NCBI GenBank assembly: GCA_046329885.1
Contig: JAXLTU010000009.1
Coordinates: 1,703-65,702, forward strand
Direction of reading: 5' to 3'
DNA length: 64,000 nt
Source of the DNA: Bacteroidales bacterium
GTDB lineage: Bacteria; Bacteroidota; Bacteroidia; Bacteroidales; VadinHA17
Below the pieces are notes generated by a model. That model did no database searches. It had not been told where the DNA came from and worked only from the letters and a program-made list of their open reading frames with translations. Each line of letters starts with the position of its first letter. Within the stretch, counting starts at the first letter, position 1. The position numbers were made by a program, and so were the translations under genes. This document shows positions 27,642 to 42,858 of this stretch, piece after piece.

Positions 27642-30602
27642 ATGGGCACATACCAAGAAAGAATCATGTCATTTAAATCCCTACCTTTAATAAAATCTAA
27701 ACTTAGGGAAATTACGTTGAGGCAGGAGTCTCTCGAGAAAATTAGGACTACCATTTCGGAGGATAATTTTGAAACTTTAAATAATAGTTATCTTACTCAG
27801 ATTAAAGAACTCACCGTAAAAAGAGATGAATTGCAAGCTGGTGCTGATTTATTAAAGAATGAGATCGAGCTAGAGTCTAAAATGCTCAAAAGCGAAATTT
27901 CTATCGTAAGCAAAGAAATTCAAGAAAATCAATTGTTATTTGAAAACAAGATTCTGAGTAAACAAAATTTTAAGAATAAGCTCATTATTCTTAAAAAAAG
28001 AGTAAAAAAAGATGAAAAGGCACTAAACCAGATTTTAGTATCATTGAAAGAATTGGATTATTATGCAACATCTATCGGTAATGAAACATATCAAAAAAAT
28101 ATTTATAATGAGAGGATTGAATCAATCAGAACTGGTTCCTCAAGAATACATTTTGGATTTGGAAAACTCTTGAAACCTAAGGTTCTGATTCCAGTCATCA
28201 TTTTAATTATCTTGATAGTTTCTTCAATTTTCTTTCATAGACCTTTTAAAGGAATAATTGAAGAAGAAATAGCATGGCATAAGACCTTAAAACAAAACAC
28301 TTACGAAGCTTATGACCTATATCTTTTATCTTATATTGATGGAAGACATAGATTTGTGGCAGATAAGAATAAGGAGGAAGCTCTTCGTACATTAGTTAAT
28401 TTAAAGAAGACTCCGAATCTAGTAAATCAATATTTAGATACTTACCCTAAAGGAAAATTTATTAATGAGGTCCAGCGAATAAAAGATTCTATAGCTTTGG
28501 TATGCTCTCATATTACTGATAATATGCAACACGAAATTCCGCAATCATTGAATAATTCAAACGAGAATTCTAATGACAAATCTGAATCCACAGAATTGAC
28601 CAATTCACCAAAAAATAATGAGCAATTAACCAATCCGGCTAAAGAATCGCCAAAACTTCAAGAAGGCTTAATAAACTATTGGGATTTTGATTTTTATGCA
28701 GAAAACAAGAAAACAATACCTTTTCATGTAGGAAATAAAGAGGCAGTTGTAAATGAAGTTTCATTAACAAAGGATTCAAAAAACGGTAACGCCATTGATT
28801 TTAATGGTAAATCATCTTTAGTATCAATACCACATAATTCATCATTTAATACTCAAACCTTTACAATAAGTTTCTGGGCAAAATCAATTAGTAGATACAG
28901 ACAAGTTCCTATTAGTAAGTGGTGGAATGGTACAACTAGGCAATGGGAAGTTATTTTTAATGATGATAATAAACTTGGTAATATAAGATTCTTTATCGGA
29001 TATAATGGGTCATTCCAAGCAGTCGATTTCACAACATCTCAAATATATGATGGCTATTGGCATTTGTATAATTTTACAATGGACAATGGCCTAATAAAAA
29101 TCTGGATAGATGGTGAAGAAAAAGCTAGTAGAAATACAGGATACAAAATGTTGTATAATGATCGACCTATCTATATTGGTCAAGACAGTTATTTTGGAGA
29201 GACAAATTATCTTCCGTATAATGGGATAATAGACGAAGTTGCCATTTGGGAAAGAACTCTATCATCTGGTGATATTCAAAATCTTTATAATGAAAAGAGT
29301 ATCTTACCTTCAACAGTAGGAAGTTTTAATCGCGAAAAAAGTACCTTGAAAAAATTTATTCTTGATGAATCTTATGATCTAAATGATAATCAAGTACCTA
29401 ACGAATGGGAATTGATAGTTCCTTCACAAGAAGTCATTTTTGAAAATGGCAAATTGTTTGCTAATCCAGTTGATGCATACGGATTCTTAAGACGAATGAT
29501 TTCTATTCCAAACAATATAGGAAACGCTAGATTTGAATGGGATGGAAATTTAGCCAAAACAAAATGGGGTATGACAAATAGATTCCAAATAAATTTTAAT
29601 AATAACATGTACATAGCGGTATATTTACAAACTGCAACAGCATGGGGTATCAATAATAATAAATTACTTTTCAAACATGATTCCGGGAATGGCGAACAAA
29701 ATTCTGAGGAGTGGAAAGTTCCTCTTAAATATGGCGAATTTCATTATGAAATAAATGTTAATAGACGCCAAATTAAATTTACTAGTTATGACAAGGAAAC
29801 TAATGCAATCTATGTGGATCAAATCATAAACATTCCATCAACTATTTCATTTAGTCTTCAACAAATTACAAGTGTTGATTTTGGCGTTAATTGTACAACT
29901 GAAAACAGTAATTGGCTAGATAATATATCTATCAAATTAATTGATAGTCAGACAAATACTCAATCTCTGAATAAAAAAATTACACAAAATAATTCTGAAG
30001 TAGATCAAGTATATACAATAATTGATGGGTATAGATATAAAACGATTAAAATTGGAGATCAAATATGGATGGCCGAAAATTTAAAAACCACCAAATACAA
30101 CGATGGCACCGCTATTCCTTTGGTTACTAATAATACTGCATGGAGCAATCTTACAACCCCTGGATATTGCTGGTACAATAATGATGCAGTAACATATAAA
30201 AACACTTATGGTGCATTGTACAACTGGTACACCATAAATACAGGTAAACTATGCCCTGCCGGATGGCATGTTCCAAGCGATGCCGAGTGGACAACGTTAT
30301 TAACCTACCTGGGCGGTAAAGATGTTGCCGGTGGCAAACTAAAGGAAATCGGCACCACACATTGGACAAGCTCAAACACTGGTGCAACTAATGAAACCGG
30401 TTTTACAGCCCTTCCGGGGGGCGCCCGTGAGGGAAATGGGGATTTCGAAGGCATTGGAAGCGGCGGTTGTTGGTGGAGTACTACAGAGTACTATACAAAT
30501 TACGTCTGGTACCGGGACATGAATTCCGATAACAGCAATGTAGGCCGGGATGGTAACGACGGTAAACCCTATGGGTTATCAGTTCGTTGCTTAAAGGATT
30601 AA
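27642..30602 (+). CDS. 986-aa membrane protein: cytoplasmic coiled coil + TM + LamG/concanavalin-like + C-terminal FISH (TIGR02145-type) domain
   Basis: TM VLIPVIILIILIVSSIFF. LamG-type NAIDFNGKSSLVSIPH..FTISFWAK..WHLYNFT..IWIDGEE..GIIDEVAIWERTLS. FISH motifs WMAENL, YGALYNWY, KLCPAGWHVPSDAEW, GFTALPGG, WWSTT, GLSVRCLKD. Confidence 0.8.
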   Translation: MGTYQERIMSFKSLPLIKSKLREITLRQESLEKIRTTISEDNFETLNNSYLTQIKELTVKRDELQAGADLLKNEIELESKMLKSEISIVSKEIQENQLLFENKILSKQNFKNKLIILKKRVKKDEKALNQILVSLKELDYYATSIGNETYQKNIYNERIESIRTGSSRIHFGFGKLLKPKVLIPVIILIILIVSSIFFHRPFKGIIEEEIAWHKTLKQNTYEAYDLYLLSYIDGRHRFVADKNKEEALRTLVNLKKTPNLVNQYLDTYPKGKFINEVQRIKDSIALVCSHITDNMQHEIPQSLNNSNENSNDKSESTELTNSPKNNEQLTNPAKESPKLQEGLINYWDFDFYAENKKTIPFHVGNKEAVVNEVSLTKDSKNGNAIDFNGKSSLVSIPHNSSFNTQTFTISFWAKSISRYRQVPISKWWNGTTRQWEVIFNDDNKLGNIRFFIGYNGSFQAVDFTTSQIYDGYWHLYNFTMDNGLIKIWIDGEEKASRNTGYKMLYNDRPIYIGQDSYFGETNYLPYNGIIDEVAIWERTLSSGDIQNLYNEKSILPSTVGSFNREKSTLKKFILDESYDLNDNQVPNEWELIVPSQEVIFENGKLFANPVDAYGFLRRMISIPNNIGNARFEWDGNLAKTKWGMTNRFQINFNNNMYIAVYLQTATAWGINNNKLLFKHDSGNGEQNSEEWKVPLKYGEFHYEINVNRRQIKFTSYDKETNAIYVDQIINIPSTISFSLQQITSVDFGVNCTTENSNWLDNISIKLIDSQTNTQSLNKKITQNNSEVDQVYTIIDGYRYKTIKIGDQIWMAENLKTTKYNDGTAIPLVTNNTAWSNLTTPGYCWYNNDAVTYKNTYGALYNWYTINTGKLCPAGWHVPSDAEWTTLLTYLGGKDVAGGKLKEIGTTHWTSSNTGATNETGFTALPGGAREGNGDFEGIGSGGCWWSTTEYYTNYVWYRDMNSDNSNVGRDGNDGKPYGLSVRCLKD

Positions 30603-30744
30603 TTTATTTGACTATTTTGTATTTGATTATTATCAGATAATATGTCCTTAATATCACCATAATTACAGAAACCTAAATGTCAATAATTAGAGAAAAATAA
30701 GAATATCTTAACTCATTAATTATATACATCTAAACAATATAAAA

Positions 30745-31845
30745 ATGAATTCAATTCAAGAACAAATCAAGAAATTTCGGGAATTACCAGTTTTAAAGTC
30801 AAAACTGGATGATTTATTTTTACGTAAAGAATCGATCCAAAAGATCAAGTCGACTATTTCTGAAGAAAATTACAAATCCCTTAATGAGAATTATCTAAAA
30901 CAAATTCAAGAGTTTACAAATAGACTTGATTTATTGCAATCAGAAATTAATTCACTTAAAAATGAAATTATTTTGGATTCTAAATTGCTATCAAGCGAAG
31001 TATCAATTACTGAAAAAGAGCTTCAAGAAACGCAGTTTCTCTATGATAGAAATGCCTTAAGTAAAGCTGATTACAATAATAAACGAAACTCACTCCAGAA
31101 AAAGATTAATACTAATAGAAGTCTGATTGAAAATAACCGATCCAAAATAAAGAAGCTTGATTTTTATAATTCACATGTTGGAACCGATTCCGGTATAAAG
31201 GACGCTTATAAACAAAATGGGGCATTTATCTTTTCTGGAGTATATAATTTCATAAGTTCAATTAAATCCTTATCATTCAATCCTAAAAATTTAATCATAA
31301 TTGGAGTGATAATGGTTTTAATAGTATTCTTTTTATTTTTCATGAATTCAAAAAGTGCTCAATATTCTTCTATCCTGCCAGATTCTTATTCTAAACTTAA
31401 ACTTGGAATGACATTAGATAAATTTCACTCAAAATATTCAGAGAGAGATTATAAAGAGGATTATAATCGTGATGGATCCTTAAGTATCAGTTTCAAGCTC
31501 AACAAAGCCACAGACTATAAGTATCTTAATAGCTGGGAATTGGAATTTAAGAAAGAACGCCTATATTCTATTGTGGGAATATGTACGTATACATCAGAAA
31601 GGGAAGAATTGTGTAATATGGCCAATGAAATTGATAAACTAGTTAAGAAAATGAAATATGATTCTATTAATCAAGACAAAACATATGATGACTTTCCTAA
31701 TTGCATTGCATATAAGCAATACTATTTAAAATTAAAGACTAAAGGTATGCCGTATTATTATTCAATTGATATTATTAATGACCTTAATGCTAGGAGGTGG
31801 GGCAGGGATTCGTTTAAAGTATTAATCCAAACCGAACAAAAATGA
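30745..31845 (+). CDS. 366-aa membrane protein, N-terminal paralogue of 27642..30602
   Basis: The first ~145 aa align without gaps to the N-terminus of the 986-aa protein (F+.LP+.KSKL..+.LR+ES++KI+.TISE+N+..LN..YL.QI+E.T). TM LIIIGVIMVLIVFFLFF, then an unrelated ~150-aa ectodomain. Confidence 0.75.
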   Translation: MNSIQEQIKKFRELPVLKSKLDDLFLRKESIQKIKSTISEENYKSLNENYLKQIQEFTNRLDLLQSEINSLKNEIILDSKLLSSEVSITEKELQETQFLYDRNALSKADYNNKRNSLQKKINTNRSLIENNRSKIKKLDFYNSHVGTDSGIKDAYKQNGAFIFSGVYNFISSIKSLSFNPKNLIIIGVIMVLIVFFLFFMNSKSAQYSSILPDSYSKLKLGMTLDKFHSKYSERDYKEDYNRDGSLSISFKLNKATDYKYLNSWELEFKKERLYSIVGICTYTSEREELCNMANEIDKLVKKMKYDSINQDKTYDDFPNCIAYKQYYLKLKTKGMPYYYSIDIINDLNARRWGRDSFKVLIQTEQK

Positions 31846-31897
31846 TAAAGAGTCTTAATGTGTAGTTCATTATTCTAACATAAATTATTTTAATAAA

Positions 31898-32305
31898 ATG
31901 ACCTCATTCCTAAAAAGATTATTAAACAGCAGAAAATTAATTATCCCAATTTGTTTTACAATTTTACTTTTTCAGGTAGGTTGTAGCACGAAATCTGAAG
32001 AGGATATTAAAGAATTAAAAAAATCTTTTAATAGTACTTTAAGTGATGCTTGCAAGATTATTCAAAACGGGAAACTTAGTAGTAATCAGAAAATAAATCA
32101 AATTAATATCAAGCAAGTACAGATAGATAGCTTATCAAAAATATGGGATTGTAAAATTGAAAGTTCTATAACAAATCTCTCAGAAAAAGAAATAAATAAT
32201 ATTGAAAATGAGAATAGATTGATGAGCGAGAAACTAATAAGAACGATCCTTAAGGAAATGCCAGAGTATAAAGACCTTCTAAGAGAAAATTTATTTAACA
32301 AATAA
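31898..32305 (+). CDS. small lipoprotein (hypothetical)
   Basis: Lipobox LLFQVGC; 135 aa. Confidence 0.6.
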   Translation: MTSFLKRLLNSRKLIIPICFTILLFQVGCSTKSEEDIKELKKSFNSTLSDACKIIQNGKLSSNQKINQINIKQVQIDSLSKIWDCKIESSITNLSEKEINNIENENRLMSEKLIRTILKEMPEYKDLLRENLFNK

Positions 32306-32306
32306 T

Positions 32307-33974
32307 ATGAAAAAGCTGATTTTTTCAATCATATGGTTAGTAGTTTTTAATGTAATTTCTCAATTGACTTTGTTTTCACAATCAGGCGATAATAATTTAG
32401 AAAATAATTTGAGGGTTTCATATATTGATCCTGTTTCTTTAGCTAATGAATATATTAATGGAGAAAAGTGGAGTTTCTATTGGCAACCTGCTACCAAAAC
32501 AATGGTGAATTTGCTCTATAATGTCGGATTTTCAGCAGCCAGGTATGGAGGCAGGTACATAATCTTAGAATCACCCAGTCTAGCTATAGATATGGTTAAA
32601 GGAGGAGCTTATGTTCTTTCTGATATGACATATGATGGTTTTTTAGAAATTATCAAACAAGCCATAAAAACGCCAGGTAAACTATGTGTAAATATAGCCC
32701 AATCGACAAAAAGAGAAGGGGTCAAGGCTTATAATATAGCATATGATATTGCACAAAAGCAAAAAGAAACAGGCATAGTAACTAATGAAGAGGCTGTTTT
32801 GTTCTTAAGAAGTATGTGGAATTCATTGAAATGTGCTGTGGCACGAACACTTTATATTGATAGTCAAGAAGAATATAATATTGATGAGCTTGCTGCGGAA
32901 AAAGCTGTTGATGAGATCATTGGACAATTAGAACCAGCCATAAGAGCAAAACTTGACATTAATAACCAACTACCATTGATTGACGCCGCTAAATTTATAC
33001 ATGACATTTTTGAAATATTGGAAAACAAGAAAGTTGGATTGGCTGCTTATCCACCATATATTGATTATATGAAGAATATCAGTGAATTAAATAACTTATG
33101 GTTAAATACTTTAGAAAGAATTGGAGGTAATACTATAATTGAATCAAAAGATAAATATAATTATATAATCATTCCTGGCAAAAGCGTTGGTCCAATAAAT
33201 TATTCTACCACTTTAGGGGATTTGATATCGTTTTATGGTAGAGAGAATGTTGATACCAAAACGGAATATACTGCTGGTGAAGGAACAGAATTAGAAACAT
33301 TAACATATATTAAAAACAGAGGACTGACAATCAGATGGAAAGATCAGGTAACACAAGATCCTATTCATCCAAGATTTGTTTCTATAAAAAGTTATCCTTC
33401 GAATTATCATACAGCAGAAGGAATAACAATTGGAACATCTGCCCAGGAATTGGGAATTATTAACGGAGGGCCGTTTGATTACAAAGATATTGAAATCGAA
33501 CCCTTTAAAATGGTAACTGATTGGAAAGGAGGAAAGTTAGAGAAATATGGAAGTGAGGTGCGTAATTCATGGTTAATCAAACTGGATAATTATTCCGATA
33601 TGAGAACTGTTGAATTAGTAATTGATATAAACGAAGATTTGAAAAGTACTTCATCAGAAAAACTAGATTCCCAAGTTGGTGAATCACTAAAAATTATTAA
33701 TCCTAAAGGTGGTGAATCTTGGCAAAAAGGACAAAAGGTGCTAATCAACTGGGAAGCAAATGAGGCACCTGGCGAATTGCATATTTTACTTAGAAGTCCT
33801 GATGAATACAAACTATTGATGATCTTCAGTGTCATTAAATCAGGAAGTACATGGGTCAATATTCCTTATACTATTAAAAATGGTTCAAATTGGCATTTAC
33901 AGTTTATTGTTAAAAATGCGAATGGTGAAGCACTGGTTCAATCCGAAAGATTTTCCATTGGGGGTGATAATTAG
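32307..33974 (+). CDS. secreted protein (hypothetical)
   Basis: Signal peptide MKKLIFSIIWLVVFNVISQLTLFSQ. Starts 1 nt after the previous stop. No family recognised. Confidence 0.7.
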   Translation: MKKLIFSIIWLVVFNVISQLTLFSQSGDNNLENNLRVSYIDPVSLANEYINGEKWSFYWQPATKTMVNLLYNVGFSAARYGGRYIILESPSLAIDMVKGGAYVLSDMTYDGFLEIIKQAIKTPGKLCVNIAQSTKREGVKAYNIAYDIAQKQKETGIVTNEEAVLFLRSMWNSLKCAVARTLYIDSQEEYNIDELAAEKAVDEIIGQLEPAIRAKLDINNQLPLIDAAKFIHDIFEILENKKVGLAAYPPYIDYMKNISELNNLWLNTLERIGGNTIIESKDKYNYIIIPGKSVGPINYSTTLGDLISFYGRENVDTKTEYTAGEGTELETLTYIKNRGLTIRWKDQVTQDPIHPRFVSIKSYPSNYHTAEGITIGTSAQELGIINGGPFDYKDIEIEPFKMVTDWKGGKLEKYGSEVRNSWLIKLDNYSDMRTVELVIDINEDLKSTSSEKLDSQVGESLKIINPKGGESWQKGQKVLINWEANEAPGELHILLRSPDEYKLLMIFSVIKSGSTWVNIPYTIKNGSNWHLQFIVKNANGEALVQSERFSIGGDN

Positions 33975-34158
33975 ATTTTATTAAATATTTTTTTGATTAC
34001 CAATTACAACAAAAATCTTTTAGCAAGTTTATCGGTGTTAACTGGTCACTATTAAAAACAAGGTCATCGGAAGTATTTATATTGCCATTACAACTTCAAA
34101 ATAATAGGTGCCATATTATAAAGGGAATCGATATTACGTATGACTCCATCTCAAACAC

Positions 34159-34354
34159 CATCCCGTCGCTATAAGGCACATTACGCAATTATTAAATTCT
34201 GTACACAAGTTGAAGATTGAGTTTGCATAAAGAGCCTTCCAGCCCCTCCCTGCCAACCATAGAATTAGGCTGCTAAAGCAGAAGACTTAATTACAACATG
34301 TCAACTCCCAAATTTGCCATGCAGCTATCTCCCTGGCAAATGTAATAAGCTATT
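34159..34354. repeat. island-boundary repeat, copy 2
   Basis: Colinear with 42657..42858. Core TAAAGAGCCTTCCAGCCCCTCCCTGCCA begins at 34228, a 27/28 match to 42732... Confidence 0.8.
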
Positions 34355-34411
34355 ATAATAGATGTCGGAAATCGAATAATTGAAATTTCTATAAATGAAG
34401 AGGAAGATTTA

Positions 34412-34951
34412 ATGCCAATTCGTAATCATTGTGTAAGCACAAAAGATTGGAATATTGCATTTATAAACTTTAAGCAAAAAGAAGACATTGGAGATCACTG
34501 TAATGGTAACTGTTCCTGTAAATTTGATTTCTTTATTGTTGAACAGAATGGCCGATGTTTGCTTCAGTCAAGGAACTTATCTCAAGTCAATAAATATTTA
34601 AAGTCAAATAAACTTTTAATACATAAGGATATTTCAAAAATATGGAATTACCCAGCAGCAAAATACAAATACTTAGTTGCAAAATTTCGAAATATTGATC
34701 AGCGAGTTAAGAATTGCTTCATCTGTAGATATCATGCAATAAATGAAAATTTAGAGGAGGAAAGATCTCCAATATTTTGTAAATTTTTAAAAGTTACAGG
34801 CAATTCTAATCTTGCAGTTGATTGTAAATATTTTAGAGCTGAAAAAAAATACATCGATGAGTATGTGGAAGAAGGTGAAGCTATAATCAAACATTTAAAT
34901 CAAAGGATTCCTGACAATGTGGGGAATTTGGACGAAGAAAATTTTGAATAA
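34412..34951 (+). CDS. Cys-rich hypothetical protein
   Basis: 179 aa with clustered Cys/His (HCNGNCSC, CFICRYH, FCKF, DCKYF). First ORF after repeat copy 2. No family recognised. Confidence 0.5.
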   Translation: MPIRNHCVSTKDWNIAFINFKQKEDIGDHCNGNCSCKFDFFIVEQNGRCLLQSRNLSQVNKYLKSNKLLIHKDISKIWNYPAAKYKYLVAKFRNIDQRVKNCFICRYHAINENLEEERSPIFCKFLKVTGNSNLAVDCKYFRAEKKYIDEYVEEGEAIIKHLNQRIPDNVGNLDEENFE

Positions 34952-35064
34952 AAACGGTAGTTAACACGGACTGTATAATTAATGAGCTCCTTACGGTTTT
35001 TGCGGATACTGAACCCATATATAAGGGCCTGATTATTATTAATTCACATATATTTTCTACAAGT

Positions 35065-35913
35065 ATGGAAAATTTAACTTTTACTGCTTTTGACACCGAG
35101 ACTGCAACAAATAAAAGTACAAGCCTATGCCAGATTGGGTATGTAGTTGTAACCGAAGGACAAATTACCACCGAAAAATTATTTCTGATTCAGCCACCTA
35201 ATAATGAATATGATGCCCGCCATTCATGCATCCATGGAATTGATGCCTTAACAACATGGGACAAACCGCTATTCCCGGAGGTATGGGAAATTATTAAAAA
35301 TGAATTTATCGGTGCACTCCTAGTTGCTCACAATATTAGTTTTGATCTTAATATACTACATTCCACTCTGGACTTTTACAACCTTCCTAAACCGCACTTC
35401 TCCTTTGATTGTACCTACAAATTAACAGGATTAAAGCTTAAAGCACTAGCAGAAGCATTTCAAATACCTATAATAAAACAGCATGATGCGTTATCTGATG
35501 CAAAAATATGCGCACTGGCTTATATGCTTATAAAACAAGGGATTAATCCAAATAATAATTTAATAAATGAAATAGTGAGTACAGATGCCTTTGCTGGTCA
35601 TGAAAGATTAGTGGGAGATATTTTAAAACCAGATTTGAAAGTAGAAAATAATTCCACTCCATTCTATGCAAAAAAAGTGGTATTCACCGGGGTTCTTCAA
35701 ACCATTACAAGAGAGGATGCCGCAATATTAGTTAAGAATTTAGGAGCCGACATAGACACTGGAGTTAATAAGAAAACTGATTATGTTATAGTTGGAACTG
35801 GGGCAGGTCCTTCAAAACTTAAAAAAATACAAGACTTTAACGCTGCTGGCTCTAATATAAAAATCATAAATGAAACTGATTTTCTCAACATTATAAATAA
35901 AAGCAATAAATAA
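35065..35913 (+). CDS. DEDDh 3'-5' exonuclease (DnaQ/epsilon-like) fused to a C-terminal BRCT-like domain
   Basis: ExoI FTAFDTETA, ExoII LVAHNISFDLNIL, ExoIII HDALSDAKI. C-terminus KKVVFTGVLQTITREDAAILVKNLGADIDTGVNKKTDYVIVG is a BRCT pattern as in NAD-ligase tails. Confidence 0.8.
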   Translation: MENLTFTAFDTETATNKSTSLCQIGYVVVTEGQITTEKLFLIQPPNNEYDARHSCIHGIDALTTWDKPLFPEVWEIIKNEFIGALLVAHNISFDLNILHSTLDFYNLPKPHFSFDCTYKLTGLKLKALAEAFQIPIIKQHDALSDAKICALAYMLIKQGINPNNNLINEIVSTDAFAGHERLVGDILKPDLKVENNSTPFYAKKVVFTGVLQTITREDAAILVKNLGADIDTGVNKKTDYVIVGTGAGPSKLKKIQDFNAAGSNIKIINETDFLNIINKSNK

Positions 35914-35989
35914 TATCAGTGTAAATGCTAATATTTAAAATTAAGAACGGAATATTGGTAGTTTGTAATTCAGAAAACACAATATAGAA

Positions 35990-38900
35990 ATGGAAACACA
36001 ACTACAGAAAGAGTTCAAAGTTGATTTCGTTTACTCTCGGGTAATTAGTTTTTCAATGCAACAGAATCACATTCCTGTTATTAGAAAACTACTCATTACA
36101 AATTCAACGGGAACAGATATTCAAAACATTAATATTGAATTGAATTTCGAGCCGGAATTTTCAACACCAATTTCTACAAAAGTTTTATTTCTAAAAGAAG
36201 GCGAATCGATACACATAAACAACTTTGACCTGAAACTTTCACCGAAGTTTCTTTCTGAACTATCAGAAAAAATATCTGGCAAAATAAAATTCACAATACA
36301 AAAGGAAGCTGAAATTCTATTTAATAATGAATATCTTATTGATGTTTTAGCCTTTGATCAATGGCAAGGAATATCCATTCTTCCTGAGACAATTTCTTCC
36401 TTCATTACACCTAATAATCCCAACATCTCAAGAATAATTTCACGGGCCTCTGAAATATTAAACATATGGACTGGAAATCCCTCCCTTGATGAATATCAGA
36501 GTAGGAATCCTGATAGAGTTAAAAAACAAATGGCTGCAATATATGAGGCTATACGGGAACTTGAAATAGTATATTGTCCACCACCGGCAAGCTTTGAGGA
36601 ATCCGGTCAAAGGATTAGGATGATTGATACCTTGTTAAACCAAAAATTAGGGACATGTCTTGACTTATCCTTATTATACTCCTCTTGTATTGAAGCAATT
36701 GGAATCAATCCATTATTTATTGTTATCAAAGGACACGCTTTTGCTGGAGCCTGGCTCATTGATGATACGTTCCCAGATAGTATAAATGATGATTTCTCCT
36801 TACTTACGAAAAGAATCGCCGATGGTATAAATGAAGTACTATTGGTGGAGACTACTTGTATGAATAGTGGAAGCTCGATTACTTTTGATGATGCAGTTAA
36901 AGCGGGAAATTATCATCTAGTGAAAAGCGAAGATTTTATTCTTTTCGTTGATATAAAAAGATCGAGGTTTGCTGGGATAAGACCTCTTCCTCAAAGAATT
37001 AAAACTGATTTGGGTTGGGAATTCTCAGATGATCAAAAATCCATAACATTCACAGAATCACCCGAAGAAATATTGCCAGATAATATTATAATTGATTATC
37101 AACCAAAAGAATTTTCAAAGCAGCAGCTATGGGAACGTAAGCTTCTTGATCTGAGCCTCAGAAATAATTTGCTTAATACCAGAATAACCAAAAGTACAAT
37201 TCAGTTAATTTCAGTCAGCCTAAATTTACTTGAGGATTCGCTTTCTGCCGGAGAAGAATTTCAACTATTACCAAAACCTTCTGACTGGGAGAATCCATTT
37301 AGAATAGCAGGGGTGTATCAAACTTTAAATCAGACTGATCCGGTAATTGATCTTGTAAAAAATGAACTTTCTCAAAAACGTTTACGGACTTACCTTACTG
37401 AAACAGAACTTTCTCATGGACTTACTAACCTCTATCGGTCCTCTAAGCTTTCATTGGAAGAAAATGGTGCAAACACTCTTTATCTGTGTATAGGTCTTTT
37501 GAAATGGTTTGAGACCCCTGTAAGTGAGCAGCCAAGGTTTTCCCCTCTTTTACTAATACCTGTTGATATAATAAGAAAATCTGCTCTTAAAGGATATGTA
37601 ATAAGAAGCAGAGAGGAAGATATTTTGATGAATATCACACTAGTTGAAATGCTGAGGCAGGATTTTAAAATAAATATTACCGGCCTTGATCCCTTACCAA
37701 AAGATGAGAGCGGTGTTGATGTTAAAAGAACTTTTAATATTCTCCGTCAATTTATTATGGGACAGAACCGATGGGACATAGAGGAACAAGCTATCCTGGG
37801 TATCTTTTCATTTAATAAGTTTATAATGTGGAACGACATCCACAACAATGCTGATAAGCTTTCTGAAAATAAAATAGTAACAAGTTTAATTTCAGGGAAG
37901 GCTCAATGGGACGTAACATCAAATCAAATTTTGCCAGAAGATCTGGATTTGAAATATCATCCTTCAGAATTAATTCTACCTATAAGTGCTGACTCTTCAC
38001 AATTAAATGCAATAAGCGCATCCAGTCAAGATAAAAGTTTCATTCTACATGGACCTCCGGGGACAGGAAAATCTCAAACAATTACTAATATTATTGCCAA
38101 TGCTCTGTATTCAGGAAGGAAGGTACTTTTTGTTGCTGAAAAAATGGCCGCACTTGAGGTCGTTCAACGAAAACTAGAAGGAATAGGTATCGCTCCTTTT
38201 TGTCTGGAATTACATTCCAAAAAAACCAAGAAATCAGTTCTTCTTGAACAATTGAAAAGAACAACTGAAATCGTTCGTAAAACTTCACCAGAAGATTTTT
38301 TAACTGAAGCTGAACGAATATTCCAAATAAGAAAAGAGCTTAATCATTATGTTGATTCTTTACATAAAAAATATCCTTTTGGATTTTCTCTATTTGAAGC
38401 GTTTTCAGGTTATGCCTCTATTCGGGCATTCCCAACTGAAATTAAATTTGAAAAAGGTGTTATCGATTCGCTTACAAGAGAAAAGGTAAGAATCTGGACC
38501 GAACTTGCCGAAGAGTTGAAAGCTGCAGGAATTATGTGCGGGGAACCTCATAATCATCCATTAAGAGCAATTCGCACTACTTCATATTCGACACAAATTA
38601 AATCAGATGCTAAACTCCAAATTGATAGATACTATACAGCTGTAAAAGAGCTAAATCTCAATACAATTGCAGTCCAGAAAGTGCTAAATACAAAAATTGA
38701 AATTAAGCAAAGATCACAAATTATAGCACTGAATGAAATTTGTAAAATTTTGGAATTATCCTCAGATGTTCCATCCTCACTACTTATATTAAAGGACTTA
38801 GATGAATCTATTAAAATAATAATCAGCATAGCCCAGCATGGTAAAAATCGAAACAAATTAAGAGAGGATTTACTTGAATCATTTACAAAGGGGATATTAA

Positions 38901-41833
38901 ATATTGATGCAGAAAATTTAATAGTTGAATGGAAAGTATCACTTACAAAATGGCTTATTCCAAGGTTTTTTCATCAAAGAAGTATAATTAAGATCCTTAA
39001 AACACTGTCAATTAATAGAAAAATAAGCACATCCGCTATTGAGCCAATTTTAAATAAGATAATAGAATATCAGCAGGAACAAAGTCAGATAGAAGCCCAA
39101 ACTAGCTATTTAGCACCTATTCTGGGCTTAAAATGGCAAGGTGGAGAAGGTGATTGGATGGAAATTGAGAATTCCTGTCTCATTATATCAAAACTAAATT
39201 CTTTATTACTAGCATTTTCGCTAAATCCAATAAAGGCTAAGGAAATAAGAGAATCACTAGCTAATTGTTTACTGGAAGGTTACAAAGCTTTTCATTCAGC
39301 TTACAAAGAGACTTTTCATATTCTTCAAGAGAGCTTTAAAAGTGTTTTTGAGATTGAAAGAATTCTAAATGAATTACTTGTTATTGACTTTGAACAGATT
39401 GAAATCATTAAAGAAATCCACTTAGAGAATTTACTTGAACATTGTAATAACTGGAAAAGCAGAATCGATTCCTTAAGAGATTGGGCAGGGTGGAATAAAA
39501 CTGTACTTAACGTTAGAAAGGAAGGATTGGACCAGCTTGTTAGAGATTTTGAGAATGGATCCATTCAGGGCCAGGATATTGTAGAATATTTTACAAAGAA
39601 TCTTTATCGCAATTTTGCAGATTTTATAATTGATAAGGATATTCTACTTTCTTCTTTCAATGGTAAGCTTTTTGACGAGAAGATCAGAAAGTTTCGGCAG
39701 TTCAATAAAAGATTTGAAAAACTGACCAGGGATGAATTATATGCAAAATTAGCATCAAAGGTTCCATCTTTCGCACTGGAAGTAGCTCAGAGTTCTGAAA
39801 TTGGAATCTTACAACGAAATATCAGGAATAATGGTAGAGGTATGAGTATTCGAAAGCTTTTTGACACCATTCCAACTTTGATTACTCGGATTTCCCCCTG
39901 TATGTTAATGAGTCCAATTTCTGTGGCACAGTATATTGATATTTCTAATTTTAAATTTGACTTGATAATTTTCGATGAAGCATCTCAAATGCCCACAAGT
40001 GAAGCTGTTAGTGCAATAGCAAGAGGAAATAATCTTATTGTTGTTGGTGACCCAAAGCAAATGCCTCCAACTAATTTCTTTTCGACAAACAATATTGATG
40101 AAGAAAACATTGAAAAAGAGGATATGGAAAGTATACTCGATGACGGTCTTGCATTGTCATTACCTTCAATCCATTTACTCTGGCATTATCGAAGTAAACA
40201 CGAAAGTCTGATTACATTCAGTAATTCTCAATTTTATGAAAATAGCCTTTTGACTTTTCCCTCGCCTGACGATCTAACGACAAAAGTCAAATTCATACAT
40301 ATTCCAGGGTATTATGATCGTGGTAAATCAAGGCAAAACAGTTTTGAAGCCAAAGCAGTAGTAGAAGAGATTATTACAAGGCTTTCAGATCCTACCCTTT
40401 CAAAAATGAGTATAGGAGTAGTTACTTTTAGCTCTGTCCAGCAAATTCTTATTGACGATATGCTAACTGAAGCATTCAAGTTAAGACCCGATCTAGAATT
40501 AATAGCAACTGAATCAAATGAGCCTATTTTTATTAAAAACCTTGAGAATGTCCAAGGTGATGAACGGGACGTTATTTTATTCTCTGTCGGCTATGGGCCT
40601 GACAAAGACAACAAAGTAAATCTAAACTTTGGTCCATTAAATCGCGAAGGAGGATGGCGTAGGTTAAATGTTGCAGTCTCTCGTGCAAGATATGAAATGA
40701 AAGTTTTTTCTACGCTTAAGTCTGAGCAAATTGATATAACCAGAACGGCCTCTGTAGGTGTCTCGGGATTAAAAGCATTTCTTGAGTATGCCGAAAAGGG
40801 TAAAAGTTCTTTAACAATGCCAAAAGTAAATCAAAAAGCACACGATATAGGTTTAATTGCAAGTCTTTCTAGTAGATTAACAATGGAAGGATTCGAAGTA
40901 CGAACCAATATTGGAAGCTCTGGTTTCAAAATTGATATAGGAATTATAAATCCTAAGACCCCTTCAAAATATTTACTGGGAATATTATGTGATGGGCCCA
41001 ATTATAGAGATTCTAAGACCGCAAAAGATCGAGAGATAATTCAATCAGAAGTACTTGGCTTATTAGGATGGAATATCTATAAAGTTTGGTCATGTGATTG
41101 GTGGGACGATCAGGAAAAAGTATTAAAGGAGATTATTCAGGCAATCAACGATCCAACATCATCAAAAATAGAACCTGAGGTGATACCATCTCCGCTGATA
41201 AAAACAGAGATTCCAATTGTGATTACAAATAAAGTTGAGAAAAGTGTTAATGCCTCATCTCAATCTAAGTATAAACAACAATATAATATATGCAATCTAC
41301 CCCTTCAGATTCGTTCTCCTCAATTTGATCTGCTTAGTTCAGATAGATTTAAGTCAACAGTTGGAGTAGATATTTTGTTAATTCTTGAAAAGGAAGCTCC
41401 CATCAGCAAGGAGTTATTATGTCGTAGAATTTTGGACTCATGGTCAATTAGCAGACTTGGATCAAGAATTGACTCCTATTTTAGTACCCTTTTTAAACAA
41501 CTAGGACTTAAATATACTGATGGCGGACGACGTTTTTATTGGTATGAAAATCAAATCCCAGATTCTTATTCTTATTATCGTGTCTCAGAACTCGAATCTC
41601 AAAGGCGTGATGCAATTGATATTTCACCAGAGGAAGTCTCAAATGCAATTCACGAAATCCTAGAGAATATGATCAGCCTTAATAAGACTGATCTCGTTAA
41701 AGAGTCCGCAAAAATTTTTGGTTTTAATCGGATAGGAGGGAATGTAGAAACATCGATGAATCAAGGAATAATCAAGGCTGTAAATCGTGGTTTTGCCCTT
41801 ATTGAAGGTGAACGTGTATTTCTAAAGGAGTAA
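35990..41833 (+). CDS. 1947-aa multidomain protein: transglutaminase-like core + DUF4011-like + SF1 (Upf1/AAA_11-AAA_12) helicase + Vsr/DUF559-type endonuclease fold + DUF3320-like C-terminus
   Basis: LGTC223LDLSLLYSSCIEAIGINP..KGH249AFAGAWLIDD; WERKLLDLSLRNNLLN; Walker A GPPGTGK694S; LIIFDE1330ASQM; VVGDPKQMPP; WHYRSKHESLITFSN; VQGDERDVILFSV; LNVAVSRARYEM; GFKIDIGI..LGILCDGPNY..W; tail ISKELLCRRILDSW. Confidence 0.85.
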   Translation: METQLQKEFKVDFVYSRVISFSMQQNHIPVIRKLLITNSTGTDIQNINIELNFEPEFSTPISTKVLFLKEGESIHINNFDLKLSPKFLSELSEKISGKIKFTIQKEAEILFNNEYLIDVLAFDQWQGISILPETISSFITPNNPNISRIISRASEILNIWTGNPSLDEYQSRNPDRVKKQMAAIYEAIRELEIVYCPPPASFEESGQRIRMIDTLLNQKLGTCLDLSLLYSSCIEAIGINPLFIVIKGHAFAGAWLIDDTFPDSINDDFSLLTKRIADGINEVLLVETTCMNSGSSITFDDAVKAGNYHLVKSEDFILFVDIKRSRFAGIRPLPQRIKTDLGWEFSDDQKSITFTESPEEILPDNIIIDYQPKEFSKQQLWERKLLDLSLRNNLLNTRITKSTIQLISVSLNLLEDSLSAGEEFQLLPKPSDWENPFRIAGVYQTLNQTDPVIDLVKNELSQKRLRTYLTETELSHGLTNLYRSSKLSLEENGANTLYLCIGLLKWFETPVSEQPRFSPLLLIPVDIIRKSALKGYVIRSREEDILMNITLVEMLRQDFKINITGLDPLPKDESGVDVKRTFNILRQFIMGQNRWDIEEQAILGIFSFNKFIMWNDIHNNADKLSENKIVTSLISGKAQWDVTSNQILPEDLDLKYHPSELILPISADSSQLNAISASSQDKSFILHGPPGTGKSQTITNIIANALYSGRKVLFVAEKMAALEVVQRKLEGIGIAPFCLELHSKKTKKSVLLEQLKRTTEIVRKTSPEDFLTEAERIFQIRKELNHYVDSLHKKYPFGFSLFEAFSGYASIRAFPTEIKFEKGVIDSLTREKVRIWTELAEELKAAGIMCGEPHNHPLRAIRTTSYSTQIKSDAKLQIDRYYTAVKELNLNTIAVQKVLNTKIEIKQRSQIIALNEICKILELSSDVPSSLLILKDLDESIKIIISIAQHGKNRNKLREDLLESFTKGILNIDAENLIVEWKVSLTKWLIPRFFHQRSIIKILKTLSINRKISTSAIEPILNKIIEYQQEQSQIEAQTSYLAPILGLKWQGGEGDWMEIENSCLIISKLNSLLLAFSLNPIKAKEIRESLANCLLEGYKAFHSAYKETFHILQESFKSVFEIERILNELLVIDFEQIEIIKEIHLENLLEHCNNWKSRIDSLRDWAGWNKTVLNVRKEGLDQLVRDFENGSIQGQDIVEYFTKNLYRNFADFIIDKDILLSSFNGKLFDEKIRKFRQFNKRFEKLTRDELYAKLASKVPSFALEVAQSSEIGILQRNIRNNGRGMSIRKLFDTIPTLITRISPCMLMSPISVAQYIDISNFKFDLIIFDEASQMPTSEAVSAIARGNNLIVVGDPKQMPPTNFFSTNNIDEENIEKEDMESILDDGLALSLPSIHLLWHYRSKHESLITFSNSQFYENSLLTFPSPDDLTTKVKFIHIPGYYDRGKSRQNSFEAKAVVEEIITRLSDPTLSKMSIGVVTFSSVQQILIDDMLTEAFKLRPDLELIATESNEPIFIKNLENVQGDERDVILFSVGYGPDKDNKVNLNFGPLNREGGWRRLNVAVSRARYEMKVFSTLKSEQIDITRTASVGVSGLKAFLEYAEKGKSSLTMPKVNQKAHDIGLIASLSSRLTMEGFEVRTNIGSSGFKIDIGIINPKTPSKYLLGILCDGPNYRDSKTAKDREIIQSEVLGLLGWNIYKVWSCDWWDDQEKVLKEIIQAINDPTSSKIEPEVIPSPLIKTEIPIVITNKVEKSVNASSQSKYKQQYNICNLPLQIRSPQFDLLSSDRFKSTVGVDILLILEKEAPISKELLCRRILDSWSISRLGSRIDSYFSTLFKQLGLKYTDGGRRFYWYENQIPDSYSYYRVSELESQRRDAIDISPEEVSNAIHEILENMISLNKTDLVKESAKIFGFNRIGGNVETSMNQGIIKAVNRGFALIEGERVFLKE

Positions 41834-41849
41834 GGAAACAATACATATT

Positions 41850-42650
41850 ATGAAGCAAAAGATCTATCATTTGATCGAGAAAGGTTCTCATGGATCCAAA
41901 GTTAATCTCTTATTCGATTACTTTATTATAATCCTGATTATATCAAATGTAATCGCTATAGCCATAGATACCCTTACCGGCTTATCTGACCAATTGCGAT
42001 ATGAGTTGAAAATCTTTGAGATTACTTCTGTAATAATTTTCTCGATAGAATATATGTTAAGAATTTATATATCTGATATTACACATCCGGCTAAAAGCAA
42101 AAAGGCATCAGTAATTAAGTTCATATTCTCTCCTTTTGGTATTATTGATATGTTGGCAATACTTCCTTTCTATATTCCTTTTATTATTAAGGTTGACCTA
42201 AGATTCTTAAGAATCATTAGGTTAATAAGGTTTTTCAGAGTTCTAAAAATTAACAGATATAATTCAACCCTGGTATTATTTAGAGATGTTTTAAAAGAAA
42301 AAAGAGCCGAGATTGGGATGACCTTTTTCATAGTCTTTATCTTACTTCTTATTTCCTCATTTTTAATGTATAGTGTTGAGAATTCAGTACAACCAGATAA
42401 ATTTCAAAATGTGTTTGCATCATTATGGTGGGCAGTTGCTACTCTTACCACAGTTGGCTACGGAGATCTTTACCCAATAACAACATTGGGCAAAATAATA
42501 AGTGGAATAGTCTCAATCTTAGGAATTGGGCTCATTGCCTTACCAACTGGCATAATAAGTGCAGGTTTCATCGGAAAGATTAGTCAAACAAAAAAAGACA
42601 TGAATACACATGTTTGTCCACATTGTGGTAAAGAAGTTAACATGATATAA
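41850..42650 (+). CDS. voltage-gated-type (6-TM) K+ channel
   Basis: S4-like LRFLRIIRLIRFFRVLK with Arg/Lys every third residue (nt 42201..42257). Selectivity filter TTVGYGD (nt 42447..42467). C-terminal CPHCGK. Starts 17 nt after the helicase stop. Confidence 0.85.
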   Translation: MKQKIYHLIEKGSHGSKVNLLFDYFIIILIISNVIAIAIDTLTGLSDQLRYELKIFEITSVIIFSIEYMLRIYISDITHPAKSKKASVIKFIFSPFGIIDMLAILPFYIPFIIKVDLRFLRIIRLIRFFRVLKINRYNSTLVLFRDVLKEKRAEIGMTFFIVFILLLISSFLMYSVENSVQPDKFQNVFASLWWAVATLTTVGYGDLYPITTLGKIISGIVSILGIGLIALPTGIISAGFIGKISQTKKDMNTHVCPHCGKEVNMI

Positions 42651-42656
42651 AAGAAT

Positions 42657-42858
42657 CATCCCGTCACTTCGCTGTCAAGTACATTACACAGAAAGTAATA
42701 CTTCGTTCTGAATTAAGTTCTCAGGGTTGTGTAAAGAGCCTTCCAGCCCGTCCCTGCCAGTCGGCGAGACAGGCGGTTAGAGTAGAAAGTTCTAATACAT
42801 CATGACAACTCCAAAATATTCCCAACAGCTAACTCATTGGCGGATGTAATTAGCTGTT
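42657..42858. repeat. island-boundary repeat, copy 3
   Basis: Colinear with 34159..34354. Contains local stems CAGCTAA/TTAGCTG and CGGATGT/ACATCCG. Confidence 0.8.

Follow-up and report, generated by a model that had tools for sequence, protein, structure and literature searches.

A full-length ProA protein with a predicted transglutaminase-like head in a Bacteroidales genome, and its relation to Hhe

The locus and its place in the ProA family

We describe a gene for a giant helicase in a 64,000-nucleotide stretch of a Bacteroidales (VadinHA17) genome (contig JAXLTU010000009.1, assembly GCA_046329885.1), hereafter the window, to which all nucleotide positions refer. The gene is a single unbroken open reading frame (ORF) on the + strand, 35990..41833, which starts with ATG, encodes 1947 amino acids (aa) and is intact and of full length. 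Its product matches the NCBIfam equivalog NF058533, "anti-phage protein ProA", in one stretch and with 2178.9 bits against a cutoff of 1500, aa 20-1914 corresponding to model positions 1-1903, and the PADLOC candidate PDC-S37 matches aa 380-1932 with 1226 bits. From its N terminus, the protein is predicted to comprise a beta-sandwich (aa 1-120, 35990..36349) and a transglutaminase-like core with a Cys-His-Asp set (aa 121-347, 36350..37030), which together form what we call the head, then DUF4011 (aa 384-555, 37139..37654; Pfam, 156.6 bits), an Upf1-like helicase of superfamily 1B with an enlarged insert in its first RecA domain (RecA1), a Vsr-like domain of the restriction endonuclease fold (aa 1627-1719, 40868..41146), and a tail matched by DUF3320 (aa 1798-1828, 41381..41473; Pfam, 38.8 bits), read as a winged helix-turn-helix (wHTH) after PMC3710099. 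Two possible accessory genes lie on the same strand, one for a DEDDh (RNase_T) exonuclease with a BRCT domain upstream (35065..35913) and one for a voltage-gated-type K+ channel downstream (41850..42650).

A preliminary description of this DNA, made from its letters alone, had recognized the order DUF4011, AAA_11, AAA_12, MTES_1575 and DUF3320; Pfam finds all of these, and the motifs quoted in that description lie in the ORF translation at exactly the residues given for them. The same description called the architecture functionally uncharacterised, a view that no longer holds, given that Hhe is a validated anti-phage protein and that the window protein passes the ProA equivalog.

The window protein is an ordinary full-length member of a large and already curated ProA anti-phage family. 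A protein database search returned more than 3700 proteins at E<=1e-10, the best of them 94% identical, and no record identical to the window protein. Most relatives are ~50-80% identical to it and show no structural difference from it; those named at their source are mostly annotated "DUF3320 domain-containing protein." A search of 185,579 species genomes with a 12-sequence alignment found at least 301 relatives, a patchy distribution, with full-length collinear homologues in 62 genome loci of Bacteroidota and Ignavibacteria (ORFs of 1917-1996 aa, nearly all 1920-1960). Since the NF058533 match spans the protein including its N terminus, the curated family includes the head. The family is thus already known, and the head is a standard, previously described part of its proteins, so that the value for annotation is small: a current pipeline would call the gene "anti-phage protein ProA." The window offers a compact, intact example of ProA with a possible two-gene accessory set, and the remaining interest lies in the chemistry of the head, in the degenerate Vsr motif, and in the small exonuclease-ProA-channel cassette.

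A known relative is Hhe, a defence gene of Gao et al. 2020, which has in common with the window protein DUF4011, a superfamily 1 helicase with a very long gap, and a Vsr-like nuclease. The defence by Hhe covers lambda, T3, T7, and PhiV-1 and depends on its Vsr domain (bioRxiv 10.1101/2022.06.16.496414). The two proteins are ~31-35% identical over aa 464-864 and aa 1162-1732 of the window protein, which reaches only 786.2 bits, with partial coverage, against the cutoff of 2000 of the Hhe model NF042953, and 543.7 bits with the PADLOC Hhe model. Hhe begins directly at the DUF4011 motif, whereas in the window protein DUF4011 is preceded by 380 aa.

The transglutaminase-like head

AlphaFold2, used with a 55-sequence alignment, gave a two-domain model of the head with a predicted local distance difference test (pLDDT) of 86.5, in which an all-beta sandwich (aa 1-120, pLDDT ~90, strands only) precedes an alpha/beta core. 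Among its PDB matches, Foldseek ranked transglutaminase 2 (TG2; E 5.8e-4) first and the bacterial putative protease 3kd4 next; the matches were dominated by beta-sandwiches of the Ig-like, CARDB, and UNC119 types, together with the N-terminal sandwich and core of TG2. The core alone (aa 121-347), modelled at a pLDDT of 92.6, matched almost only chains of the transglutaminase fold, namely 3kd4, PNGase (2f4m, 1x3w, 3esw), Rad4/XPC, 3isr, PeiP/PeiW, LapG, TglA, and a fish transglutaminase (1g0d), besides more distant matches to arylamine N-acetyltransferases and menin. It is the consistency of this list, not any single E-value, that carries the fold assignment of the core. With the transglutaminase-like thiol enzymes (PNGase, 3kd4/3isr, PeiP/PeiW, LapG, and animal transglutaminases), the modelled head has in common the fold, a Cys at the N terminus of a helix, a His and an Asp on later strands, and, as in TG2, a beta-sandwich in front of the core. 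Unlike those enzymes, it forms part of a helicase polypeptide, and it resembles them in sequence only below threshold.

Pfam gave no match to aa 1-380 even at E<=10, and a HMMER profile of the 55 homologues returned only noise, and no transglutaminase, from the PDB sequences. The preliminary description had regarded the absence of a profile hit as fatal to its proposal, and for the 380-aa query no hit was indeed obtained; searches with the isolated core and the structure comparison reversed that outcome. The 227-aa core reaches 12.6 bits (cutoff 20.5; E 0.098) with DUF553, a "transglutaminase-like domain." Among 21 homologous cores, 13 match Transglut_core (best E 0.0014) and 9 match DUF553 (best E 4.8e-4), and single matches to Transglut_core2 and to the CEP76 peptidase-like domain were also obtained. 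Modelled structure, sequence, and conservation agree in identifying aa 121-347 as a transglutaminase-like domain, which bears out the head with a Cys-His pattern proposed at the outset.

The conserved residues are C223 (36656-36658), with which the QKLGTC motif ends, H249 (36734-36736), contained in KGHAFAGAWLIDD (aa 247-259), and the pair D267/D268 (36788-36793). All four are invariant in the 55 homologues. In a diverse set of 141 representatives with at most 50% mutual identity, C223 is kept in 138, H249 in 139, D268 in 138, and D267 in 118, a Cys/His pattern that lies far beyond chance and that confirms the conservation on which the preliminary description had made its proposal depend. Column conservation of the head (0.77-0.80) is on a par with that of the helicase motifs. 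In the model, C223 starts the helix 223-236, H249 starts the strand 249-255, and D267/D268 follow a bridge at 265-266, so that the arrangement of the putative triad along the predicted secondary structure is the canonical transglutaminase layout. The spacing, Cys-26-His-18/19-Asp, is similar to that of the yeast PNGase triad, Cys191/His218/Asp235.

The head is widespread. Searched against 1.84 billion cluster representatives, the core profile found 6005 proteins at E<=0.001, of which 3741 remain at 1e-10 and 1333 at 1e-30. Among the 150 best matches, nearly all full-length proteins have 1900-2400 aa and carry the head at ~115-345; a few have an N-terminal extension, and the head then lies at ~315-540. 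Three copies carried on plasmids (of Bacteroides finegoldii, Acinetobacter baumannii, and Pseudomonas aeruginosa) likewise contain the head and pass the ProA cutoff. In an Hhe annotated under that name on a Klebsiella plasmid (1911 aa), no match to the head profile was found, even with filters off and E<=100. Because genuine Hhe lacks the head and the ProA copies have it, the head separates ProA from Hhe. The preliminary description, which had asked how often such helicases carry the head, took it for an extra. With 6005 clusters matched by its profile, it is instead a regular component of a very large family. As to the extensions, an additional 188 N-terminal aa without Pfam match are found in a 64-65% identical subgroup (P0137, P0139, and P0141), and a family representative of 2420 aa (P0348) has DUF4145, which we take to be a HEPN-clan domain, at its N terminus.

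The fusion itself was described in 2013: Anantharaman et al. (PMC3710099) reported giant proteins that join HEPN, a transglutaminase-like peptidase, a superfamily I helicase, a novel restriction endonuclease of the Vsr family (MTES_1575), and wHTH domains, the latter overlapping DUF3320. These authors proposed a defence that does not depend on modification, to which the transglutaminase domain would add another layer by cleaving proteins. The window protein shows the same fusion minus HEPN and represents the HEPN-less form. An N-terminal HEPN domain was considered for it and ruled out, as aa 1-120 are all-beta in the AlphaFold2 model and give no Pfam match to HEPN or DUF4145.

The helicase and the Vsr-like domain

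Helicase motifs I, II, III, V, and VI are intact (GPPGTGKS, DEAS, VGDPKQ, QGDERD, and RRLNVAVSRAR) and at least 98% conserved. Motif I, the Walker A motif, lies at aa 688-695 (38051..38074) and motif II at aa 1329-1332 (39974..39985), and QGDERD and RRLNVAVSRAR belong to the second RecA domain (AAA_12, aa 1392-1573, 40163..40708). Pfam matches AAA_11 with 64.9 bits, in two separate stretches of the protein, and AAA_12 with 59.1 bits; the PDB matches are Sen1, Upf1, and IGHMBP2. These structures align up to ~aa 724-746 and resume from ~aa 1316, and the interruption of the AAA_11 match holds a poorly conserved RecA1 insert of ~580 aa (aa ~730-1310, 38177..39919), whose location presumably corresponds to accessory domain 1C of Upf1-like helicases. 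The preliminary description had seen here a Lys/Glu/Leu-rich insert of ~560 aa. The length was roughly right, Walker A and motif II being 633 aa apart, but the enrichment is only marginal (K 9.0 versus 7.2%, E 9.0 versus 7.9%, and L 11.9 versus 11.0% in the insert and the whole protein, respectively). Nor is the insert a peculiarity of this gene: the region is present in all ProA homologues, with a column identity of 0.40-0.59 versus 0.8-0.9 in the motifs, and in the Klebsiella Hhe, 940 aa lie between Walker A (aa 447) and DEASQ (aa 1387). This even longer gap makes the long distance between the two motifs a trait of the clade.

The Vsr-like domain is recognized by MTES_1575 (PF18741) with 88.2 bits against a gathering threshold of 38.2, and includes GFKIDIGI (aa 1645-1652) and ILCDG (aa 1665-1669). 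Three acidic residues, D1649, D1668, and D1680, are nearly invariant across the aligned family sequences. The motif around the second of these reads ILCDGPNYR in the window protein (40982..41011, aa 1665-1674), versus IECDGAAYH in Hhe and VECDGATYH in the ProA of P. aeruginosa. L1666 and R1673 thus occupy the positions of the Glu and the His of the ExDG..YH motif, which Hhe retains. Of the 102 sequences aligned, 82 have L, I, or M at the Glu position and only 6 have Glu; these six are the Hhe control, the plasmid ProA of P. aeruginosa, and four representatives of the family. Four of the six also have His at position 1673, which is otherwise unconstrained. Most ProA representatives have lost both residues together; with its Hhe-type Glu and His, the P. 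aeruginosa ProA differs from them and from the window protein. In E. coli Hhe, the E1731A substitution in the Vsr domain abolishes defence (bioRxiv 10.1101/2022.06.16.496414). The only Glu near position 1731 in the Klebsiella Hhe is that of IECDG, and the two are likely equivalent. With Glu and His missing from this motif, the nuclease fold of the window ProA may be altered or inactive, and the three potential catalytic activities that the preliminary description attributed to the polypeptide are no longer secure.

Genomic setting, proposed mechanism and alternatives

The three genes are closely spaced: the exonuclease gene ends 76 nucleotides (nt) upstream of ProA, and the channel gene starts 17 nt after the ProA stop codon, leaving a gap of 16 nt. 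The channel has six transmembrane segments, a TTVGYGD filter, an Arg-rich S4, and a C-terminal CPHC. A block of 7.6 kb (35029..42634), which contains exactly the exonuclease, ProA, and the channel, is 93.7% identical to two metagenome contigs (L081 and L082), and nothing else in the 64-kb window matches these contigs. Exonuclease, ProA, and channel therefore look like a three-gene cassette set in two unrelated contexts. ProA and the channel alone are common to three further loci (L002, L003, and L008) at 73% DNA identity, and a channel directly follows ProA also in L006, whose ProA is only 56% identical. The exonuclease is found near ProA in 14 of the 80 loci compared (L001-L080), on varying sides and strands, and all 14 belong to one half of the ProA tree, that of the Bacteroidales/Marinilabiliales. 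We considered both genes as obligate partners of ProA and rejected the idea, as both are absent from most loci. A scan for sigma-70 promoters and terminators gave counts at or below shuffle expectation.

ProA is horizontally mobile and has defence-island neighbours in relatives. The gene has a GC content of 34.4% versus 41.6% for the window, and lies inside a low-GC tract of ~15 kb (~28000..42800; 0.30-0.35 versus 0.43-0.47 in the flanks). A relative with 68% identity (L083, 1..4958) has genes for a Type ISP restriction enzyme and AbiH immediately upstream of it, a typical defence-island setting, and elsewhere ProA is found near an SMC_N/AAA_15 ATPase. With the conserved helicase-nuclease segment (aa 1301-1730) as query, relatives were found on 496 plasmids, which include both Hhe and ProA copies.

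We propose, with a probability of roughly 85%, that the window protein is a single-polypeptide anti-phage ProA, sister to Hhe. The wHTH tail and the helicase would engage invading nucleic acid, using ATP. The head, through its Cys-His-Asp set, would be an active thiol enzyme (a peptidase, isopeptidase, amidase, or transglutaminase) and would act on a protein, either a target from phage or host or the ProA polypeptide. The Vsr-like domain would add DNA binding or cleavage, with a chemistry that must differ from that of Hhe because the Glu and the His are missing.

Several points weigh against this proposal. The anti-phage role derives from the name of a model curated at NCBI and from homology to Hhe, and in the literature searched we found neither the primary publication behind the name ProA, nor papers on PDC-S37, nor a demonstrated activity of the ProA head. 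For the core, each Foldseek match is weak when taken singly (E 6e-3 to 1, with template modelling scores of 0.27-0.39), and its match to Transglut_core stays below the Pfam gathering threshold (12.7 bits, cutoff 23; E 0.16). Finally, the immediate neighbourhood in the window is not a typical defence island.

How head and Vsr-like domain share the work can be read in other ways. The loss of the Vsr Glu and His, combined with a near-invariant Cys-His-Asp head, leads to the tentative idea, to which we give low odds, that the effector of ProA shifted from DNA cleavage to protein cleavage or cross-linking, here perhaps coupled to the K+ channel and the DEDDh-BRCT exonuclease. If so, ProA would be a helicase-guided, protein-targeting immune enzyme; the interest centres on the role of the near-invariant head within such a helicase-based protein and on its possible takeover of the effector function from the Vsr-like domain. 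Conversely, the head might be a non-catalytic transglutaminase-homology domain that binds DNA or protein in the manner of Rad4/XPC, the protein working as an Hhe-like helicase-nuclease. The Rad4 domains among the Foldseek matches of the core fit such a role, as do the defence by Hhe without any head and the PDC-S37 model, which begins only at DUF4011. We nonetheless consider it improbable: a binding domain does not agree well with a Cys, His, and Asp kept in nearly all of the diverse representatives, with a conservation equal to that of the helicase motifs, or with a spacing close to that of PNGase, and the nuclease motif that Hhe needs is degenerate in the window protein.

The cassette raises the question of whether ProA acts alone as we propose, or within a three-gene functional unit with the exonuclease as processing partner and the channel as membrane effector. 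The conservation of the whole block between otherwise unrelated flanks, the recurrence of ProA with the channel, down to the distant ProA of L006, the exonuclease in a minority of loci, and the short intergenic gaps, with no terminator-like site between the three genes, speak for a unit. We hold it to be unlikely, as most ProA loci have neither gene, the other neighbours are heterogeneous, as expected of a single-gene system, and neither gene is recognized by a ProA-partner model of NCBIfam or PADLOC, the exonuclease matching instead a separate single-gene PADLOC candidate, PDC-S48 (71 bits). Very improbable is a housekeeping helicase of DNA repair or RNA surveillance without immune function. 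The Upf1/Sen1/IGHMBP2-like helicase core and the adjoining DnaQ-like exonuclease with BRCT would suit such a role, and a defence hotspot of P. aeruginosa is flanked by a large DUF4011 core gene (PMC10250203) that need not be a ProA. A housekeeping gene is at odds with the patchy distribution, the often plasmid-borne relatives, the low-GC tract, the defence genes next to relatives, and the curated anti-phage name.

Some minor features of these loci may be added. No tRNA genes were found in the 64-kb window. Its low-GC tract also holds a gene for a Fib_succ_major/LamG protein and several ORFs without family match (30745..33974 and 34412..34951), and the flanks of the two contigs that contain the cassette carry a UvrD helicase and an SMC_N/AAA_15 ATPase. 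In the B. finegoldii locus (L084, NZ_OY725931.1), a reverse-transcriptase family gene follows ProA in convergent orientation; although labelled a plasmid, this record contains rpsA, glutamine synthetase, and trxB, and may be a chromosomal fragment. On the A. baumannii plasmid pOXA58_005078 (L085), ProA has 1718 aa and ends after the Vsr-like domain, without the DUF3320 tail; it covers positions 1-1710 of the 1903 of the ProA model and is flanked by integrase and WYL/ThiF genes.

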